Assembly (NCBI GenBank): GCA_043815505.1
Contig: JBDRIV010000004.1
Span: forward strand, 113,671-177,670
From: a bacterium
Lineage (GTDB): Bacteria > Patescibacteriota > JABMPQ01 > JBDRIV01
DNA length: 64,000 nucleotides
Direction of reading: 5' to 3'
Part shown: positions 3,836 to 61,956 of the stretch, piece after piece
Numbering within the stretch: the first letter of the stretch is position 1
How the letters are laid out: each line of letters opens with the position of its first letter
Notes under the pieces: generated by a model
Seen by the model: the letters and a program-made list of their open reading frames with translations, nothing else
Told to the model about the DNA's origin: nothing
The model's database searches: none
Position numbers and translations under genes: made by a program

Positions 3836-4621
3836 TTAGTTTTTCTTTTCTCTGGCTGCTTGTAACTGTTCTGGTGTATTTACACCATGCCATTCAGCTA
3901 AGTTTTCCAATTTATAAGCAATTACTCTTTCTCTATTCTCTTCTAGGGCCAGTTTAATCAAATCTGGTGCAATTAATTCACCCTTGCCAGTTGTTGAAGG
4001 TTGAAGTTTGGTTATGGAAGCTGCAAGCCATTTTTTATTAAATAAATAGAAACCGGCATTTATTTCTGTGAATTTCCACAAATCCTCTGTCATTGATTCT
4101 TTCTCCACAATTTGTAACACTTTGCCATCATCATCCCGAATCACGCGACCAATGTCACGTGTTTCCGGATACTCAACGGTAATAAAACTTAATAAAGCAT
4201 TATTTTTAATATGGCAATCAATAAAATTAGCGATCGTTTTTTTCTGGTAAAAAGCAGAGTCATCACCTTGAAGGGCGAGTACGTATTCTGACTTGTCAGA
4301 AACTTCTGCTAATCCACAACCAATTGCGTGTCCAGTACCAAGCTGTTCTTCTTGAACAGCATATTTAACGCGATCACCAAAATAATCTTGAATCATGGCT
4401 CTTTTATAACCAACAACAAGAATTTTCTCTAAGATCTCCAGTGATTCTAAAAGTTCCACCGAATATTCCACCATGGGTTTTCCGTTTAATTCCATTAAAA
4501 CTTTAGGAATTTCGGCTGGCTGACCATTATTAATTCTGGTGCCTTTGCCGGCAGCTAAAACTACGGCTGAAATGTTTGTATATTTTGACATAATAAAATA
4601 GAGCCTTAATAGTTTGCTCAA
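3836..4621 (-). CDS. sugar-phosphate nucleotidyltransferase
   Basis: AVVLAAGKGTRI nucleotidyltransferase glycine-rich loop near the N-terminus; true start may be the internal Met (MSKYTNIS...). Confidence 0.65.
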   Translation of the reverse strand: MSKLLRLYFIMSKYTNISAVVLAAGKGTRINNGQPAEIPKVLMELNGKPMVEYSVELLESLEILEKILVVGYKRAMIQDYFGDRVKYAVQEEQLGTGHAIGCGLAEVSDKSEYVLALQGDDSAFYQKKTIANFIDCHIKNNALLSFITVEYPETRDIGRVIRDDDGKVLQIVEKESMTEDLWKFTEINAGFYLFNKKWLAASITKLQPSTTGKGELIAPDLIKLALEENRERVIAYKLENLAEWHGVNTPEQLQAAREKKN

Positions 4622-14436: not shown

Positions 14437-14542
14437 CTCGGTAGTACGATTTAATGATTAATTTAAATTAGATTTCTAGTTTACCTCGATTCTTAAGAAA
14501 AGTATCTTCTACATCTTTTTTCGCCCGATTGTACTACCGGGC
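14437..14542. promoter_or_regulatory. GTAC-core inverted-repeat cassette upstream of glyS
   Basis: Proximal CTCGGTAGTACGATTT abuts the glyS ATG on the minus strand; distal GCCCGATTGTACTACCGGGC at 14524-14542. Confidence 0.5.
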
Positions 14543-20034: not shown

Positions 20035-20137
20035 CCCGGTAGGACAACTTACTGCTTAATTAATATATTAACTTTACTTTTGTGTTCAATTTTTAGAAAG
20101 TTTTGTATGAGTTTTGTTCCCAGTTGTACTACCGGGC
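20035..20137. promoter_or_regulatory. GTAC-core inverted-repeat cassette upstream of the methyltransferase gene
   Basis: Proximal CCCGGTAGGACAA abuts the ATG on the minus strand; distal CCCAGTTGTACTACCGGGC at 20119-20137. Confidence 0.5.
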
Positions 20138-20761: not shown

Positions 20762-20983
20762 TTTTAAATGATAATGATGGAGATTATTTCCCCTCCTGAA
20801 GCATAAGAAACCTGTTATAATTTTATTATAGCATATTTTGGACAAAAAAATCCCACTTAAGTTTCCAGTTACTATTGTTGTCATATTAAAAGAAAAAGAC
20901 CCGCGCTAGTTTTTAGAAAACTAACGCGGGCCGAAACGACGAATCCAAGGACTAAGACCAAAGTTCAGATGAGAACTGAGAGC

Positions 20984-21658
20984 TTAAGTCCAAAGAACTC
21001 TAGTTACTTTCGAGGACGGACGCAGGATTTTGCTGGCGCTCCCGTCGTCATGGTCGACCCAGGAGCAGCCCCAGTCCCAGGAACCATCGCCAAACCGACA
21101 GAGGTAAAGAACGTTGCGACCGCCGTCGGGGTTGCGGAGAATGGCACCCCAGAACGACAGGAACTTGATGCCCTTCGTGTCATACAGCCACTTGAGGGTC
21201 TTATGACCCTTCTCCTGCCACAGCGCCATGAAGTCTTGCTCATCGAGCTGGACATCTTCGGGAACTGCCTTGATGCGCTGAAGACGTTCCTTTCCGTTGA
21301 TGTAGGATTCACCTTCGAGATAGTCCTTATTGACAATCCTTCCAGCATCCAGATTGCCACTTTCGCGCTTTCCCACTCGCTCGATGATGCTCCAGCCTTT
21401 GCCCAGGAACTGTTCGGGGTTGAAGAGCTGGCGCTCGAGCAGATGAGGCTCGGTGGCACGCAGGTGAGCTTCCACGCGAGTACGCAGGTCGGCGAGGGTG
21501 TTTTCGGCGATTTCTGCTCCCTGTGCTTCGATCACCTGCTGGCTCGCCTCTCTTGGCAGATCGCTTTTCCTCCCCTTTGCCACGATGACATCGGCGAGTT
21601 TTGTCAGCTGTCCACCAGTGATAGTTTCTGCGGATGGGGACACGGTGTCTTTACCCAT
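20984..21658 (-). CDS. hypothetical protein in a high-GC island (about 224 aa)
   Basis: About 58-60% GC against about 33% genome; strong SD (AAGGAGG, 8-nt spacer) before ATG at 21658; no recognisable domain. Confidence 0.6.
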   Translation of the reverse strand: MGKDTVSPSAETITGGQLTKLADVIVAKGRKSDLPREASQQVIEAQGAEIAENTLADLRTRVEAHLRATEPHLLERQLFNPEQFLGKGWSIIERVGKRESGNLDAGRIVNKDYLEGESYINGKERLQRIKAVPEDVQLDEQDFMALWQEKGHKTLKWLYDTKGIKFLSFWGAILRNPDGGRNVLYLCRFGDGSWDWGCSWVDHDDGSASKILRPSSKVTRVLWT

Positions 21659-21785
21659 GGCGACATCCTCCTTATGTTGTATAGTACACGTCCTAGAACG
21701 CACAGAGCCTATCTCTGCACATTACTAAGACTGTGTATTATATATTATTATATCTTTTTTTCAACCATTTTCAGGAAAATATCCC

Positions 21786-26287: not shown

Positions 26288-26385
26288 CCCAGTAGTACAA
26301 TTAAATGATTCTTGTGTTTTATATTTTCTTATCTAATTTGCTAAAAAAGTTAGACTTTTCTATGTTCTACATTGTACTACTGGGC
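26288..26385. promoter_or_regulatory. GTAC-core inverted-repeat pair
   Basis: CCCAGTAGTACAATT (26288-26302) and its exact reverse complement AATTGTACTACTGGG (26371-26385). Confidence 0.5.
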
Positions 26386-26423: not shown

Positions 26424-26452
26424 TTGACAATTTTATGTTTTGGTAGTATAAT
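26424..26452 (+). promoter_or_regulatory. consensus sigma70-type promoter TTGACA-N17-TATAAT
   Basis: Exact TTGACA (26424-26429) and TATAAT (26447-26452) with a 17-nt spacer, about 85 nt upstream of the GTG-start gene. Confidence 0.5.
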
Positions 26453-26536
26453 ATAGCTCAAATAAAAATAAAGAAAGTTCTCTAACCCCCGCTTTCCGTA
26501 TTCTGGAAAAACAACTTAAAAAAGGGAGGACGGAAA

Positions 26537-26860
26537 GTGACAAAAAGAGACGTTTTGGTGGTGATGGCAATGTTACTCTGCATGACCGCGGGAAACATTG
26601 CAGGATTATTCCTCGCAAATGAGAACCCAATCCAGCAGATCTGGGAAGGTCCCGACGGGAACTTCAAGCTCCTGTTGGTTCTGTTCCCCTTCATCGTCAT
26701 CACCTTCTGCGTTCTCTGCATCCGCGAGGTGCGGAGAACCAGAAACAAACAGTGGGTGACACTGTATACCGTTTTGGCTATCGCCGGCATGGCAGCGGCC
26801 ATCGGAGTTGGGATTTGGAGTAGTAAGTGCTTCATCGCACTTATGGCTCCATCCTGCTAA
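26537..26860 (+). CDS. small membrane protein (107 aa)
   Basis: GTG start preceded by a GGGAGGA SD; three hydrophobic helices; about 50% GC. Confidence 0.5.
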   Translation: MTKRDVLVVMAMLLCMTAGNIAGLFLANENPIQQIWEGPDGNFKLLLVLFPFIVITFCVLCIREVRRTRNKQWVTLYTVLAIAGMAAAIGVGIWSSKCFIALMAPSC

Positions 26861-26869
26861 CCCCCTCAA

Positions 26870-26914
26870 CCCGCTCGTAGCAACCTTAATTGGAAGCTGC
26901 AGCGGGTTTTTTTT
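26870..26914 (+). terminator. intrinsic terminator
   Basis: CCCGCT...AGCGGG hairpin followed by T8. Confidence 0.5.
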
Positions 26915-35502: not shown

Positions 35503-35560
35503 TAATTTAGCATTACTATTTTCCATAGCGGAAACGATTTGAAAATATATTTAATTTAAA

Positions 35561-35625
35561 CATTCTGACATTCTTGAGAATGTTGGAATGTTTTATTCTG
35601 GTGTTCTTAAGAATTTAAGAATAGA
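35561..35625. repeat. 3'-end repeat family copy 1
   Basis: 24-nt exact match ACATTCTTGAGAATGTTGGAATGT with 61386-61409, plus shared GTTCTTAAGAATTT. Confidence 0.5.
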
Positions 35626-36691: not shown

Positions 36692-37162
36692 ATGAAAATA
36701 TTAGCGAAAAATCGCAGAGCAAAATTTGATTACCACCTGAAAGAATTTTTTGAAGCAGGTATTGTTTTGACTGGTCAAGAAACAAAATCAACCAAAGGTG
36801 GAAATATTAGCTTGAAAGGAAGTTACGTGACTTTGCATCCGGTTAAAGGTAAGCCCGGCTATATGGAAGCCTTTCTCTTAAATGCTCATATTTCCCCTTA
36901 TAAACACGCGGGGGAATTACCGGATTATGACCCGGTGCGCACCAGAAAATTACTGTTGAAAAAAGCAGAAATTAGAAAATTGATCGGTAAAAAGCAGGCA
37001 GAAGGCTTGACAATAGTACCTACAAAAGTGTATACTAAGCGACGCAAAATTAAAGTTGAAATCGCCCTTGCCCGCGGTAAGAAACAATATGACAAGCGCG
37101 AAGGAATTAAGCAACGCCAAGATGATCGCGCCGCCGAACGCGAATTGCGGGGAAAGATATAA
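36692..37162 (+). CDS. smpB: SsrA-binding protein
   Basis: 156 aa with SmpB-like sequence; immediately upstream of the tmRNA locus. Confidence 0.9.
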   Translation: MKILAKNRRAKFDYHLKEFFEAGIVLTGQETKSTKGGNISLKGSYVTLHPVKGKPGYMEAFLLNAHISPYKHAGELPDYDPVRTRKLLLKKAEIRKLIGKKQAEGLTIVPTKVYTKRRKIKVEIALARGKKQYDKREGIKQRQDDRAAERELRGKI

Positions 37163-37163
37163 T

Positions 37164-37628
37164 ATGTATAAAAAAGAAGATTTTTTTCAAGTTATAGGCC
37201 ATGTAAGTGTTTTTTTCTCAACATTAGATGTTTTAACCTCAATTCTAATTAGTGAATTAGTTAAGAAATCAGTAGCCAACAAACCAAAATATGATGATAC
37301 TTTAGGTATAAAATTCCGTTTTTTGAAAGGTTTAAATAATGAAGATGTAAATAGTGTTAAAACTTTAAAAAAGTTAAACGGGTTAATTGATGAAGCAATT
37401 AAGATAAGCGATGAAAGAAATAGATATATTCACGACCTATGGGTATTTGATGATAAAAATATAAGAAAAGGATATATTGATCGGTTGCGCATGAAAGGAA
37501 CCAATAAAATAGGATTTGAAAAAGAAGTTTCAACGCTATCAATTAATGATTTATACGTGTTTCTGAAAGGAATTGGTAATATGCAAGAATCGATTGGTAA
37601 GATGATAAAGAATAAGGGTAATATATAA
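37164..37628 (+). CDS. hypothetical protein coupled to smpB
   Basis: ATG overlaps the smpB stop (TAATATG); 154 aa, AT-rich, no recognised motif. Confidence 0.45.
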   Translation: MYKKEDFFQVIGHVSVFFSTLDVLTSILISELVKKSVANKPKYDDTLGIKFRFLKGLNNEDVNSVKTLKKLNGLIDEAIKISDERNRYIHDLWVFDDKNIRKGYIDRLRMKGTNKIGFEKEVSTLSINDLYVFLKGIGNMQESIGKMIKNKGNI

Positions 37629-37912: not shown

Positions 37913-38308
37913 GGGGATGCACGGCTTCGATAGTTTTGTTCCCTAAGAATTTGCAAACCGAGCTGTTATCTCGTAAATCTAACACCTGAACACGTGCAAA
38001 CACTGTTCAAAGAATGAAAGACAAAGTTGTTAGCTTTGCTCGCAGCCTTACGCCTTCATTCGCTCCTGTAGTTGCTTAATTAAGTAACTACCATCGCACT
38101 CACCTGCCTGAGGGGGAGGTTCGCGGTGTCATTTATCAGGCTTAGATTCTAAATGCTAATCATCCATTTATAATCGACATCTCTTGATGATTATGATTTA
38201 TTCGCTTTTGTCTATTTTTATGAATAAATCGAGAACTCCAAATAGACTATGTTTGTAGAAGGTTTTTAGATACGATGCTAGACGTGGGTTCGATTCCCAC
38301 CATCTCCA
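37913..38308 (+). ncRNA. ssrA: tmRNA (ssrA)
   Basis: 5' GGGGAUGCACGGCUUCGAUAG tRNA-like start; 3' T-arm GUGGGUUCGAUUCCCAC plus acceptor strand CAUCUCC complementary to the 5' GGGGAUG; candidate tag ORF ending ...PVVA-UAA; located just after smpB. Confidence 0.75.
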
Positions 38309-38310
38309 TA

Positions 38311-38340
38311 AAAGAATCCCTTAAGAAAGGGATTTTTTTA
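38311..38340 (+). terminator. intrinsic terminator after ssrA
   Basis: AAAGAATCCC-TTAAG-AAAGGGATTTTTTT hairpin plus T-run. Confidence 0.55.
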
Positions 38341-38517
38341 TTAACTACAATTCAAACGAGGCGCGCAGTGAACGAAGTGAACGAGCACGCGTTTGAATTA
38401 AGAGGAAGAATAATATGCAAGCTGTAGCAAATAAATTTATTTGTTTGCGAAAGCTGGAGAATTATTCTGACGAGAGGCCGGACCAAAAAAGATTTACGTC
38501 AGTAAATCTATTTTTGG

Positions 38518-38535
38518 CGATTCCCACCATCTCCA
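38518..38535 (+). repeat. 18-bp direct repeat of the tmRNA 3' end (att-like)
   Basis: CGATTCCCACCATCTCCA is identical to 38291-38308. Confidence 0.6.
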
Positions 38536-38795
38536 CCAAAAATATTCATGCTTTTGTATGGATTTTTTTGATTGAGATGCATGAACATTTATTCTTTAAG
38601 GATTTGCTTTAATAAATATAATAGTATAATTTAATATTAATGTGGGGAAACGGCGTGTTCCTACCTAACAAACTCGTTAATGATCTCACCAAATATGTTT
38701 AAATACTGCTTGTTTACCTTCTCTAGGTAAACACCAACTATGTCCCATAACTGTCTCAGAAACAGTTTAACACGCCGTTTCTCCGTTTCTCTTGA

Positions 38796-38893
38796 CCCAG
38801 CCCCAGTTTTATAGAACTCGTGGTTTTGAAAATTATTAATGCTAATGAATTTCTGAAATTCAAGTACTTGAATTTAGCAAAACTGGAGCTGGG
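38796..38893. repeat. long-loop member of the CCCAGCYCCAGTTTT/AAAACTGGRGCTGGG hairpin family
   Basis: 15-bp arms with one mismatch and a loop of about 68 nt; related copies at 55346-55440, 48298-48328 and 10731-10769. Confidence 0.5.
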
Positions 38894-38921
38894 TTGACAG
38901 ATTTTACAGTTTAAGTATAAT
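38894..38921 (+). promoter_or_regulatory. consensus sigma70-type promoter TTGACA-N16-TATAAT
   Basis: Exact hexamers at 38894-38899 and 38916-38921. Confidence 0.45.
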
Positions 38922-38929
38922 TTCTAATG

Positions 38930-39450
38930 CCATCAATCGGCACTTGATCATTTGATAATATGGGGATACGGGGGCGTAGACGAGAGAGTTTGTTTGCATG
39001 TAACTTAGTGGAAATTCGACGAACAGCACCATTGGCGCCCGCACATCGGTTAACGCGGTTTCGCCAGACTTGGTGCTACGTGGTTTATCGCCATCGACGC
39101 AAGACGCGGATTAACTATCCGCGCATCCGCCGGACAGCCCAGCGAGCCTTGCTCGCTGACGTTATCAACATTTTCACGCAGGTGTAGATCTTATTGGAAG
39201 ACCTTCGTCCTCGCAAAATAAAAACGCGACTCTATCGAATGTCTGCTATCAGCACCATAAACACCATGCAATCCAGTATGGCTTTATGGATCGTTGATCC
39301 TTGACTGCATCTAACCTGCGTCTTCGTGCTCTCTCTGATGCGCCTCCGTCCCCTACCCATACCCAACCAGAGGAGAATTTCTACCCCCTTCCCCTCTGCC
39401 CACCGGGGCCACAGCAAATCTTCATCGAGATGCTGTGGTCCCATTTTTTT
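38930..39450 (+). ncRNA. candidate structured ncRNA (about 520 nt)
   Basis: Promoter-to-terminator unit with no credible ORF, GC-rich with many local hairpins; terminator GGGCCACAGCA...UGCUGUGGUCCC plus U7 at about 39405-39450. Confidence 0.3.
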
Positions 39451-39499
39451 ATTAAATATTTGACAAAATATTTCTTGATATTATACTAATAAAGCTCTT

Positions 39500-39830
39500 T
39501 AGATATAAATATGTGGTGTGGTGCGGGGTGGCTGATAAGCTGATACGGTTGAGTGCTGTGTAAAAATCGTAATGGATATCCTTATTGGGGTCACGGCTAG
39601 ATTCCCATGATGTCCGAGGAACAGGAGTAAACCTGTACACACGTGCTGTGTCGCAGCATCGCGCAAAGTCAGTTAGTTCTGCATGCGCAGGCCCGCCAAG
39701 ATCAGTACCGAAAGGGAAAAATCGTTGGCCAATAATTCTGGGCACCATCTCGCCGAAATATCGCTTTTTCATCCCCCCGCACCCACCCTTTTTCAAGGCA
39801 GATTTGGACCAAGTCCTTTCTGCCTTTTCT
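39500..39830 (+). ncRNA. candidate structured ncRNA (about 330 nt)
   Basis: TTGACA-N16-TATACT promoter at 39461-39488; 5' GGTGCGGGG pairs with 3' CCCCGCACC; terminator AAGGCAGA...TCTGCCTT plus U-run at about 39787-39830. Confidence 0.25.
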
Positions 39831-39840
39831 TTTTCCTTGA

Positions 39841-39937
39841 CCCAGCAGCACAAGTATCTACACAAATATTAAGTATTTAAATTATTTATACTATTCTATT
39901 ATATCTGAAATAATAAAATGGAATTTGTACTACCGGG
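39841..39937. promoter_or_regulatory. GTAC-core cassette upstream of infC
   Basis: Degenerate distal CCCAGCAGCACAAGTA; proximal AATTTGTACTACCGGG (39922-39937), 57 nt before the infC TTG start. Confidence 0.4.
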
Positions 39938-39993
39938 TTGACCAAATGGTCATTTTTTTGTATTTTAAAGGTACTAACTACTAATTTTACATA

Positions 39994-40503
39994 TTGAAAA
40001 AACGTACCCGCATCAACGACCAAATCAGAGTTCCTCGTGTTAAAGTAATCGACGAAAACGGCGAGATGATTGGCGAAATAGAAACATCCGCAGCCCTACA
40101 AATGGCCAAAGAAAAAGAATTGGATTTAATAGAAGTTTCTCCTAATGCCAATCCACCAGTAACAAAGATCTTGGATTTTGGTTCATATCAGTATCGCCAG
40201 AAAAAACAAGAGCGCAAGCATAAAAGTAAACAGAAGAAATTTGAGATAAAAGGTGTCAGAATTTCGATGCGTATTAGTGACAACGATTTCAATTTTAAAG
40301 TGAAACAAGCCAATAATTTTTTAGATCAAGGACATAAAGTTAGAGTTGAATTGATTGTTAAAGGTCGTGAAAATCAGCATATTAATTTGGCTTATGATAA
40401 TATTCAGAAATTTGTTGATGCTTTGGAAGGAGAAGTTGTGATTGAACAAAAAGCTGCTAAACAGCGCTTGGGACTAGCTTGTGTGGTTGCTAGAAAAAGC
40501 TAG
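39994..40503 (+). CDS. infC: translation initiation factor IF-3
   Basis: 169 aa IF-3; non-ATG (TTG) start as usual for infC; followed by rpmI-rplT. Confidence 0.85.
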   Translation: MKKRTRINDQIRVPRVKVIDENGEMIGEIETSAALQMAKEKELDLIEVSPNANPPVTKILDFGSYQYRQKKQERKHKSKQKKFEIKGVRISMRISDNDFNFKVKQANNFLDQGHKVRVELIVKGRENQHINLAYDNIQKFVDALEGEVVIEQKAAKQRLGLACVVARKS

Positions 40504-40578: not shown

Positions 40579-40685
40579 CTCGGTAGTACAACCGGACTAA
40601 TAAAATAAGTATAATCCTTTCTGATAGTATTATGCTGATTAAATAAGTAAAAAACATTAAATAATCATTAAGTTGTACTACCGGG
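40579..40685. promoter_or_regulatory. GTAC-core inverted-repeat cassette upstream of rpmI
   Basis: Distal CTCGGTAGTACAACCGGA; proximal AGTTGTACTACCGGG ends at 40685, ATG at 40686. Confidence 0.55.
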
Positions 40686-41327: not shown

Positions 41328-41358
41328 TAAAAAAATAAGGGCTGCCCGAATGGGTAGC
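41328..41358. terminator. hairpin terminator after rplT
   Basis: AAGGGCTGCCC-GAAT-GGGTAGCCCTT. Confidence 0.5.
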
Positions 41359-41395
41359 CCTTTCTAGTTTGTTGTGTTCGTGTCGTCACCTGTTG

Positions 41396-42049
41396 TTAGG
41401 CGACGGCGGTTTCTTCGACGGTGGGTTCGGCCGGCTTGTCTTCCGACTTGGGGGGAAGCCACGCTTCTTCGACGATCGGCGGACGCATGTCCTCCGGCAT
41501 GTCGAACTCGTTGGTGCCGGGACGCGGGTCGTAGGCGAAGTCGACCCACAAGTAGTTGTTGAACCACTGGAACCAGGCCGATGTCTTGACGCCGATTTTC
41601 ATTCGCACCTGGTAGTCGAAGTGAGTCGGAAACAGCTCCCGCATCTCACCGAAATCAATGGCACGCTGGTAGACCTGTTGTTGCCCCCGCTTGTCGATGT
41701 AAACCAGTCGCACCTGCGACTGGACGATCCTCGAGACGCGCTCGAAGTCGGCGGCCGGTGCCCAGGCGATGGCCTGGTACTTGGCCCGATGTCCTGGGGG
41801 AGCCTCGACGATCCGCATAGGGATCACCTTCTCCAGTTCGGGGCGTGCGAAGAGCCGTTTCTTCTTCAAATCGAAGAAAAAGCCATTGCCGATGGGCTCG
41901 ATGGCTCGACCCGCCAAACGATGGACGTAGCATCCTTCGCGTCGTCCGTTGATGACGACTGTAGTGAAGAAAAACTCACTGTCGCCGATCTTGGCAACAG
42001 TACCGACCGTATTGATCGGCTTGGACTGACTCTGATATTGTCCTCTCAT
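41396..42049 (-). CDS. hypothetical protein in a high-GC island (about 217 aa)
   Basis: About 60% GC; AAGGAGG SD 7 nt before ATG at 42049; acidic Pro-rich C-terminal tail; no recognised domain. Confidence 0.6.
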   Translation of the reverse strand: MRGQYQSQSKPINTVGTVAKIGDSEFFFTTVVINGRREGCYVHRLAGRAIEPIGNGFFFDLKKKRLFARPELEKVIPMRIVEAPPGHRAKYQAIAWAPAADFERVSRIVQSQVRLVYIDKRGQQQVYQRAIDFGEMRELFPTHFDYQVRMKIGVKTSAWFQWFNNYLWVDFAYDPRPGTNEFDMPEDMRPPIVEEAWLPPKSEDKPAEPTVEETAVA

Positions 42050-42151
42050 GGCTTTTCCTCCTTGCCTTAGAGAGATTATATTATGGCGCAAAATTTTACA
42101 TGCGCCACCGAACACAAATTGAAACGAACATCATAACAACAAAAACATTGC

Positions 42152-42179
42152 ATTATACATTATTTGTAATATTTGTCAA
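42152..42179 (-). promoter_or_regulatory. consensus sigma70-type promoter (minus strand) TTGACA-N16-TATAAT
   Basis: TTGACA at 42179-42174 and TATAAT at 42157-42152, reading the minus strand. Confidence 0.45.
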
Positions 42180-42240
42180 TATTTAGAGGCTAAAACAAAA
42201 ACTGTCCATTTTTATAGACAGTTTTTTATACCTTATTTAA

Positions 42241-42340
42241 GCCCAGTAGTACAATTTACTTATTGAATTTTATCCTATTTTTTTGAACTTGTGAATAAAG
42301 AAGAAAATATTATTATCTAAGACAATTGTACTATCTGGGA
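42241..42340. promoter_or_regulatory. GTAC-core inverted-repeat pair
   Basis: GCCCAGTAGTACAATTT and CAATTGTACTATCTGGGA, between the subtilase stop and the promoter of the high-GC gene. Confidence 0.45.
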
Positions 42341-46561: not shown

Positions 46562-46676
46562 TTGGAAAAAAGCCCGGTTGTACAACCGGGAACAATCAGA
46601 ATACAAACCTCTCTTATTAATAATATCGTAATAGAAAGATAAATACAATTATTAATCATTAATTTGTACAACTGGG
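46562..46676. promoter_or_regulatory. GTAC-core inverted-repeat cassette upstream of the PHP gene
   Basis: Distal perfect palindrome CCCGGTTGTACAACCGGG; proximal AATTTGTACAACTGGG ends at 46676, ATG at 46677. Confidence 0.55.
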
Positions 46677-60733: not shown

Positions 60734-61334
60734 ATTACTTGCTTAGAGTTTTATTATGTTAATTTTAACAACAAAAATGGTGATTGTAAATTATTTTGAG
60801 CATGAAAAAGCGGGCCCAGAAATTTTTGAGTCCGCTTGTGGAGTTTTTGCAATTACTATTTCGGAGCCATCGAAATAATGCAGATACCATGCTCTTGATT
60901 TAGAAACCATAATTAACCTCTAAAAATATTATCGATTTCAATGAGCGACGGTCAGTCACAATAGTGGATAACTTTGAAAACGGCCAAATCACAAAGATCG
61001 AATAAGGAAGTTCTATCACTGCCATCCAATCCGATGTTCGTTTCTATTTTGTGGCAGCTTCATACATCACAATCTCCTTTTTAATTTATAAAAATTTCCC
61101 ATAACCATTTTTTAACATATGGCCATATGAAGGTGAAAAAAATGTAAGCTACAAAAACAAAATTCAATCCGAGTACCAAAATTCTATCATACCGAATTTT
61201 AATTTTCCCCTTATTCATAGCAACCTCCCATTTTTTTTGTGAAAGTTCATCGAACGCAGAAAACTAATAAGTATATGTTATTGAGTGATTTTTGTCAACT
61301 CAAAAATGCTTACATAAATTATTTCATATTCTCA

Positions 61335-61410
61335 TGTTCTTAAGAATTTGAGAATGGGTTTTTTTAAGAATTTGTTAACATTCCAACATTCTTGAGAATG
61401 TTGGAATGTC
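61335..61410. repeat. 3'-end repeat family copy 2
   Basis: Same 24-mer and GTTCTTAAGAATTT word as 35561-35625; a near-palindromic 14-bp hairpin just beyond the 3' end of the HD-domain gene. Confidence 0.5.
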
Positions 61411-61956
61411 TTAGAAGCCGAGTTCTTGGGAAATTTCTTGCATGGCTTCAATTATCATCATAATATGCTCATTTTCATCCGCTCCCAGCTCTTCTATTCC
61501 TTGTTTGATTATACTGCGGTCAACTTTAGCAGCAAACCCTTTTTTCTTCAAATTCTTTTTTACAGATTTTGGTTTCATTCCCTCTAAATTTGTTGGTCGT
61601 ACATAAGCGCAAGCGGTAATAAAACCAGCTAATTCGTCCACGGCATACAAACATTTCGCCAGTTGCGATTCACGAGAAATTCCTGTTTCGTCGTTGTGTC
61701 CTTGAATTGCCTCAATTATTTCTGCATCATATCCTTTTTCTTCTAGAATCTTTTTTCCTTCCTGCGGATGATTATCGGGATATTTTTCATAATCAAAATC
61801 GTGCAACAAACCTGTAACAGCGTATTTGGCTTCATCTTCATTATACTTTTTAGCACACGCAATCATCGCTGCCTCAACCGCCAAAGCATGTTTAATCAAC
61901 GAATCAGAATTCGTATATTCTTTTAGCAATTTGTAGGCATCTTCGCGATTTGGCAT
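61411..61956 (-). CDS. HD-domain phosphohydrolase
   Basis: H...HD motif (HALAVE...LLHDFD). Confidence 0.7.
   Translation of the reverse strand: MPNREDAYKLLKEYTNSDSLIKHALAVEAAMIACAKKYNEDEAKYAVTGLLHDFDYEKYPDNHPQEGKKILEEKGYDAEIIEAIQGHNDETGISRESQLAKCLYAVDELAGFITACAYVRPTNLEGMKPKSVKKNLKKKGFAAKVDRSIIKQGIEELGADENEHIMMIIEAMQEISQELGF

Follow-up and report, generated by a model that had tools for sequence, protein, structure and literature searches.

The 64,000-nt stretch of bacterial DNA analysed here (the window) carries, in the 1.68 kb between its tmRNA gene (ssrA) and infC, what we read as two co-oriented promoter-to-terminator units, A and B. Both lie on the + strand, in each a long helix joins the 5' and 3' ends in the predicted fold, and the stretch is non-coding by every intrinsic test that we ran. 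The explanation that we favor, and to which we give about an even chance, is that A and B reached the genome by horizontal transfer and are transcribed, each from its own promoter, into structured non-coding RNAs (ncRNAs). It is credible but unproven, and A and B are well-defined candidate RNA genes rather than a demonstrated discovery.

Architecture of the two units

Unit A opens with a TTGACA-N16-TATAAT promoter (38894-38921, + strand) that matches the consensus at 12 of 12 positions and lies exactly where an earlier note on this DNA had placed it. We predict a transcript of ~520 nt (38928-39452, +) with a body GC content of ~50%. In the predicted fold, a 23-bp closing helix pairs 38962-38989 with 39328-39353 and encloses a multibranched core, and the 3' portion consists of a C-rich linker and a hairpin (39368-39398). 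The unit ends in an intrinsic terminator (39405-39450, +) formed by a 12-bp stem (39405-39416/39431-39442), a 14-nt loop and a run of seven T (39444-39450). One pair of the stem is G-U, which corresponds to a C-A mismatch on the opposite strand, and the terminator is therefore specific to the + strand. The earlier description of about 500 nt of GC-rich, stem-filled sequence ending in a terminator at about 39405-39450 is confirmed by these features.

Unit B has the same plan. Its promoter, TTGACA-N16-TATACT (39460-39487, +), matches the consensus at 11 of 12 positions and had been reported one base off, at 39461-39488. The predicted transcript is ~335 nt long (39495-39837, +), and its closing helix, interrupted and ~30 bp in length, is predicted to pair 39515-39549 with ~39745-39787. 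Within this helix GGTGCGGGG (39520-39528) complements CCCCGCACC (39775-39783), which are the paired 5' and 3' ends that the earlier note had seen in a unit of about 330 nt. The terminator that closes it was located at 39795-39837 (+), with a stem of 39795-39802/39819-39826 and a T-rich tail. Terminators A and B were both missed by an automated terminator scan because their loops exceed 8 nt.

GC content is 35.6% over the whole window and 46-54% across 38900-39850. Perfect TTGACA-N15-18-TATAAT matches occur four times in the 64 kb, against 0.11 expected; three of these stand at the head of GC-rich islands, and one of the four heads unit A. Promoter-like sites of the generic kind, by contrast, are about as frequent in the region as expected, without enrichment (12 against 9.7).

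Absence of coding signal

The longest open reading frame (ORF) of the stretch has 95 aa on the + strand and, on the – strand, 137 aa, each with a TTG start, and no ORF of at least 8 aa led by a Shine-Dalgarno (SD) motif is found on either strand of the units. Unit A has a period-3 power of 2.0 and unit B one of 0.7, compared with 7-11 for the GC-rich protein cassettes present elsewhere in the window (described below), 6.6 for infC and 1.0 for tmRNA, with the caveat that the native gene smpB reaches just 2.1. The low periodicity of A and B persists in 150-nt sliding windows. In a codon model trained on the GC-rich cassettes, in which true cassette frames score +12 to +25 in leave-one-out, the log-likelihood is negative for all six frames of A and B, as it is for tmRNA.

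Comparisons with known proteins gave the same result. Six-frame pieces of at least 30 aa, concatenated and searched against 5.8 billion proteins, returned no match at E≤10; Pfam found nothing significant on any ORF of the region, and the exact ORF sequences of the stretch are absent from the protein collection. The NCBI annotation places no gene in the stretch, as inferred from the run of locus tags and accessions. The claim that the stretch has no credible coding sequence is borne out by the lack of SD-led ORFs, by periodicity and codon scores like those of tmRNA and by the empty protein searches.

Fold strength, known RNA families and homologue searches

The minimum free energy (MFE) of unit A gives a z-score of –7.4 for the whole unit, the most extreme value that we measured in the window, and –5.8 for its core; the corresponding values for unit B are –4.6 and –3.5. 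The closing helices of both units are retained in the centroid structures. With Rfam 15 at gathering thresholds, tmRNA is the sole match in the whole window, and a cmscan at E≤10 over 38300-40000 found no RNase P, 6S, SRP, ROOL, GOLLD, OLE, HEARO, raiA or intron. The strict and the permissive search thus uphold the earlier failure to recognize RNase P, SRP, 6S or a group II intron by eye. The best sub-threshold matches are plant miRNA models on a hairpin at 38788-38901 (28.6 bits, gathering score 100) and SR6 on terminator A (23.8 bits, gathering score 55). The weak matches resemble hairpins or terminators only, and we regard those to SprC and SR6 as chance level, their E values being 0.3-1.7 and their scores far below gathering. 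A scan of the window for trans-target complementarity found a longest match of 12 nt, which is the chance level, and none of 13 nt or more.

Several results weigh against A and B being structured RNAs. In control folds, two GC-rich coding-cassette mRNAs had z-scores of –3.7 and –4.65, and the antisense of A and of B had –4.2 and –5.0; MFE energies are nearly the same on the two strands of each unit. The signal of structure thus does not favor one strand, and it may partly reflect composition or palindromes at the DNA level. Since the cassette and antisense controls are similar to the units, z-scores alone do not distinguish A and B, unit B least of all, and we rejected them as decisive proof of structure. 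The homologue searches were also negative. Using infC, we fetched a synteny set of 75 GTDB loci and added the nearest contigs of the protein collection; no match to A or B was returned by nhmmer in 91 related loci (~1.3 Mb), and blastn in distant mode found none among phages and plasmids. Exact 18-24-mer scans, which find near-identical copies only and which diverged homologues may escape, recovered nothing genuine from viral contigs and had 0 matches in metagenome contigs. Four viral-contig pattern matches inside a phage coding region were judged to be chance and were rejected by nhmmer. As no homologue was retrieved, A and B stand without conservation or covariation support.

The earlier proposal of new structured RNAs accordingly survives in part: two non-coding promoter-terminator units outside any Rfam family agree with it, whereas the overlap of their z-scores with those of coding cassettes and the missing homologues do not. 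We consider the structure evidence for A and B as only moderate. The architecture is the stronger argument: two full promoter-terminator pairs at or near consensus, on one strand, bound bodies without coding signals, and the predicted closing helices lie just inside the transcript bounds.

A lineage-specific insertion downstream of the tmRNA gene

The gene order around the units is smpB (36692-37162), the tmRNA gene (37913-38311), the studied stretch, infC (39994-40503), rpmI and rplT. The tmRNA gene scores 131.9 bits in Rfam, and ARAGORN concurs. The closest protein to the IF-3 of this genome comes from an uncultured groundwater bacterium (ACD_68C, 67% identity), followed by a few raw-read assemblies (58-60%); identity to GTDB species representatives is at most 50%, the best being Moraniibacteriota and Parcubacteria. 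These low identities place the source organism within the candidate phyla radiation (CPR), in a part of it that has been sampled poorly.

Synteny of the neighborhood is strong in relatives, which share the order IleRS, GT4 glycosyltransferase, ArgRS ... SmpB, tmRNA, a variable interval, infC, L35 and L20. In the relative L086 (GCA_034520665.1; SmpB 56% identical) the tmRNA gene ends ~150 nt from infC. In two raw-read relatives (L076 and L079) the interval is occupied by a hypothetical gene, a phosphoribosyltransferase and either an acetyltransferase or another hypothetical gene, and a further relative (L080) has similar genes directly upstream of infC, ARAGORN calling no tmRNA in the part of that locus examined. 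None of the relatives examined has A or B in its syntenic interval. These comparisons indicate that the 1.68-kb stretch is lineage-specific accessory DNA, inserted behind the tmRNA gene at a site whose content varies between genomes.

A short repeat next to the units hints at how this spot may have been used. The 3' end of the tmRNA gene, GATTCCCACCATCTCCA (38292-38308, +), is the first copy of an att-like repeat, and a second exact copy of this 17-mer lies 227 bp downstream of it (38519-38535, +); two exact copies in the window compare with 0.07 expected. The duplication looks like the scar of an ssrA-integrated element that has since been almost wholly lost. Units A and B fall downstream of the second copy, outside the repeat-bounded segment, and the flanking genes scanned include no integrase, transposase, relaxase or other recombinase, the neighbors being housekeeping genes. 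The accessory spot, the relatives that lack the stretch and the 17-nt repeat are consistent with the earlier suggestion that the units are cargo of an element integrated at ssrA.

Two side observations concern the tmRNA gene and its upstream flank. The tmRNA of L086 was seen by eye at ~4085-4482 (–), directly downstream of smpB (GGGGATGTTATAAATTCGATAG ... GCCCGCCATCTCCACCA), in a locus where ARAGORN reports none. In our window, a 155-aa AT-rich ORF (37161-37628, +) separates smpB from the tmRNA gene, a gap of only ~40-55 nt in L076 and L079; this ORF matches neither Pfam nor PHROGs and is a second lineage-specific insertion at the ssrA locus.

GC-rich protein cassettes and host expression signals

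The window also contains three GC-rich protein cassettes, at 20900-21750 (–), 26424-26905 (+) and 41340-42180 (–), with a GC content of 52-58%. Each has a consensus or near-consensus TTGACA/TATAAT promoter, a 5' untranslated region of ~50-100 nt, a strong AAGGAGG-type ribosome-binding site and an intrinsic terminator. The same promoter-body-terminator plan and raised GC content recur in units A and B, which are nonetheless non-coding. The cassette ORFs are orphan or poorly known, and searches of Pfam and PHROGs matched none of them. The cassette protein P0068 has a family of ~500 members, and its nearest relatives are found in two other CPR genomes, within GC-rich islands that form tandem arrays just upstream of IleRS (L084 4700-7000, the same contig region as L086 8700-11000, and L087 2150-4140). 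The array cassettes share a TTGACA promoter, a leader hairpin (AGCCATAGCCA...TGGCTATGGCT), an SD motif and a terminator; in L084 both array ORFs share a conserved 3' end, and a copy of ACTTGCCAAA(A)GAG, which equals the IleRS –35 region, follows each array cassette. The arrangement resembles a site-specific cassette array. By eye, no match to the integron attC consensus was seen in the relatives' arrays, and the repeated array junction ACTTGCCAAAGAG is not enriched in our window.

Native genes of the window use other signals. Among its 36 ATG-start native genes, only 4 have even a 4-mer SD-like motif, and in 12 a TAnnnT box ends 4-9 nt ahead of the ATG, suggesting that native mRNAs are widely leaderless. 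As the cassettes are SD-led while native genes lack SD motifs, the GC-rich units use signals foreign to the host genome.

Long-loop inverted repeats and other repeats

Two long-loop hairpins lie immediately upstream of unit A, and both had been described before. The first (38644-38784) has 16-nt arms (38644-38659/38769-38784) that are 94% complementary and separated by 109 nt; it had been reported as a 134-nt hairpin, with the second arm one base off. The second (38788-38901), reported as a long-loop member of a CCCAGC hairpin family at 38796-38893, is present with arms at 38788-38810 and 38879-38901, and its right arm runs straight into the –35 box of unit A. It is a variant of a family of ~100-nt intergenic elements with 14-nt inverted arms (CCCRGTAGTACAAY / RTTGTACTACYGGG) and an AT-rich center, the other copies of which lie at 14437-14541, 20035-20136, 26288-26384, 39841-39937, 40579-40685, 42242-42338 and 46573-46676. 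The window holds 18 arm matches where 3.6 would be expected. Four copies have an arm directly next to the start codon (ATG) of a native gene, two have one touching a TTGAC(A/C) –35 box, and three adjoin GC-rich cassettes. None of the 91 fetched loci contains the right-arm consensus TTGTACTACYGGG in its exact form. The family may represent a promoter/operator module or a MITE-like (miniature inverted-repeat transposable element) repeat.

The copy at 39841-39937 was recognized by family mapping and alignment as a canonical element (CCCAGCAGCACAAG ... TTTGTACTACCGGG). A promoter-like TTGACC-N17-TATTTT follows it and precedes infC, and the element marks the downstream edge of the insertion. Elsewhere in the window, a 37-nt palindromic motif, AACATTCCAACATTCTTGAGAATGTTGGAATGT, occurs in intergenic positions at 35559-35595, 61325-61361 and 61377-61413, and may be a shared terminator or operator.

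Proposed mechanism and alternative explanations

We propose that the two sigma-70-type units on the + strand each make an ncRNA, of ~520 nt for A and ~335 nt for B. In each RNA a G-rich 5' end would pair with a C-rich 3' end, forming a closing helix around a multibranched GC-rich core, and the terminator would follow. Such RNAs may be stable, end-protected and trans-acting; they would be protein binders or scaffolds rather than antisense RNAs, because the closing helices would shield their ends and no long complementarity is present in the window. The units could have entered the genome horizontally in the way that the GC-rich, SD-led orphan protein cassettes did, and our guess is that they serve mobile-element or host-conflict biology rather than housekeeping.

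The main competing explanation, which we consider unlikely although it deserves serious weight, is that A and B are decayed orphan cassettes that were once GC-rich, SD-led protein genes. The shared promoter, GC-rich body and terminator plan is what such an origin would leave, and coding cassettes give similar fold z-scores. An intact neighboring cassette gene, P0067 (217 aa), has no homologue among the 5.8 billion proteins, so that missing homology is weak evidence against a dead orphan gene and the negative six-frame search is compatible with an orphan pseudogene. Unit A has a local codon-score peak of 6.4 in one frame, which is weak and within the antisense-frame range of real genes. Against such decay, no SD remnant persists, + strand ORFs do not exceed 95 aa, periodicity stays at the tmRNA level even in 150-nt windows and the six frames are negative overall, while the promoters and terminators of both units match the consensus fully or nearly so. 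Four short signals would not be expected to survive neutral decay that erased frame, ribosome-binding site and periodicity. In addition, the predicted closing helices, for which an mRNA has no need, fall exactly within the promoter and terminator bounds, and the GC content of A and B (~50%) is below the 52-58% of the coding cassettes. The earlier note had named decayed foreign genes as its alternative, and the lack of protein homology, of period-3 signal and of any positive frame, together with the intact expression signals, disfavors it. We consider it improbable, and clearly more so than the orphan-cassette account, that the region is mobile-element debris (att sites, terminal hairpins, origin or transfer sequences) whose signals do not make functional RNAs. 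The att-like duplication beside the region, the two long-loop inverted repeats immediately upstream, the near-symmetric fold energies of the two strands and the lack of detected conservation would all suit debris; two full promoter-terminator pairs on the same strand, in correct order and spacing, would not, nor would a perfect promoter of a kind this rare in the window. Its neighborhood also lacks an integrase, transposase or relaxase, and the helices are imperfect and multibranched, unlike simple DNA palindromes.

Two further explanations appear very unlikely. A divergent housekeeping RNA (RNase P, 6S or long SRP) beyond the recognition of Rfam would agree with the size of ~330-520 nt, the 5'/3' closing helix and the GC enrichment in an AT-rich genome, all typical of such RNAs, and the lineage is remote (nearest infC relatives 67% and 58-60% identical). 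This is countered by the empty cmscan at E≤10 over 1.7 kb, with the same library giving tmRNA 131.9 bits, by the absence of the units from the syntenic interval of all relatives examined, by the empty sequence searches in ~1.3 Mb of related loci and by the RNase P P4 consensus, which was not seen by eye. The least probable explanation of all, by a little, is that the units encode small SD-less proteins, such as the 75-aa Arg-rich ORF at 38960-39187 with its AU-rich upstream sequence. As native genes lack SD motifs, the absence of an SD here is not disqualifying, and an AU-rich leader precedes the ATG at 38960. That ATG, however, is located at the foot of unit A's closing helix and ~32 nt from the predicted transcription start, so the mRNA would not be leaderless. 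The ORFs are Arg-rich and resemble translated GC-rich noise, with neither period-3 signal nor codon bias; they have no homologue, and their exact sequences are not in the protein collection.

Independently transcribed, structured ncRNAs of horizontal origin are thus the explanation that we retain for A and B. If it is true, these would be new large structured RNAs from the CPR, whose ncRNA content is almost unexplored, and they would have been brought in on accessory DNA rather than belonging to the housekeeping genes. A much bolder version, which we consider quite unlikely but a little less so than mobile-element debris, would make A and B the founders of two new large structured RNA classes. 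In it they would be the non-coding cassettes of an undescribed kind of promoter-bearing, GC-rich, SD-using accessory unit that colonizes intergenic sites of SD-free, largely leaderless CPR genomes, with related protein cassettes in tandem arrays, their flanks conserved, in at least two other CPR genomes. The wider pattern may matter more than the two RNAs: self-contained GC-rich units that bring canonical promoters, strong ribosome-binding sites and terminators into a host without SD motifs or long leaders would point to mobile cargo in reduced episymbiont genomes that forms a pool of its own and could be tracked by its expression signals.

Comparison with known systems

Phage morons are autonomous promoter-gene-terminator inserts, protein-coding and carried in prophages. 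A and B are moron-like in having their own promoter and terminator and an atypical composition and in being set between conserved genes; they differ in being non-coding and in having housekeeping genes of the chromosome, and no phage genes, as neighbors, PHROGs being negative on the neighboring cassette proteins. The Spr RNAs of Staphylococcus pathogenicity islands are small RNAs (sRNAs) on elements integrated at tRNA or tmRNA genes. Like these island sRNAs, A and B lie downstream of a putative ssrA scar, are accessory and have stand-alone promoters and terminators, but they far exceed typical base-pairing sRNAs in length and degree of structure. The neighboring tmRNA offers another comparison, since the 5' end of unit A (GGGGAUAC...) is superficially like that of tmRNA (GGGGAUGC...) and the two genes are adjacent on the same strand. 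Unlike tmRNA, unit A lacks both a T-arm and a CCA-type 3' end. We considered unit A as a tmRNA paralogue and rejected this, as nhmmer sees no similarity and ARAGORN and Rfam both call a single tmRNA.

Screens of GC-rich intergenic regions in AT-rich genomes have yielded candidate structured RNAs (Stav 2019, PMC6429828; PMC11109978; DIMPL, PMC8723152). A and B share the signature used by these screens, a long GC-enriched, ORF-free intergenic region in an AT-rich genome, but the screens accept a motif only with covarying homologues, a step at which A and B, having no homologues, fail. A further parallel is offered by the large ornate ncRNAs. ROOL and GOLLD are often found on prophage or accessory DNA, adjoining tRNA-type genes (Weinberg 2017, PMC5737381), and GOLLD, ROOL and OLE form RNA-only homo-oligomeric complexes by cryo-EM (Nature 2025, PMC12286853). 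The classes ROOL, GOLLD, OLE and raiA were defined from hundreds of covarying sequences, whereas A and B were found without homologues and, unlike those RNAs, have no covariance-model match even at E≤10; unit B is in addition much smaller than RNAs of the ROOL/GOLLD type. In their general features, A and B would share with ROOL, GOLLD, OLE and raiA a length of hundreds of nucleotides, GC enrichment, a multibranched fold and transcription as self-contained units, and unit A, at ~520 nt and beside ssrA, fits the general picture of ROOL and GOLLD.

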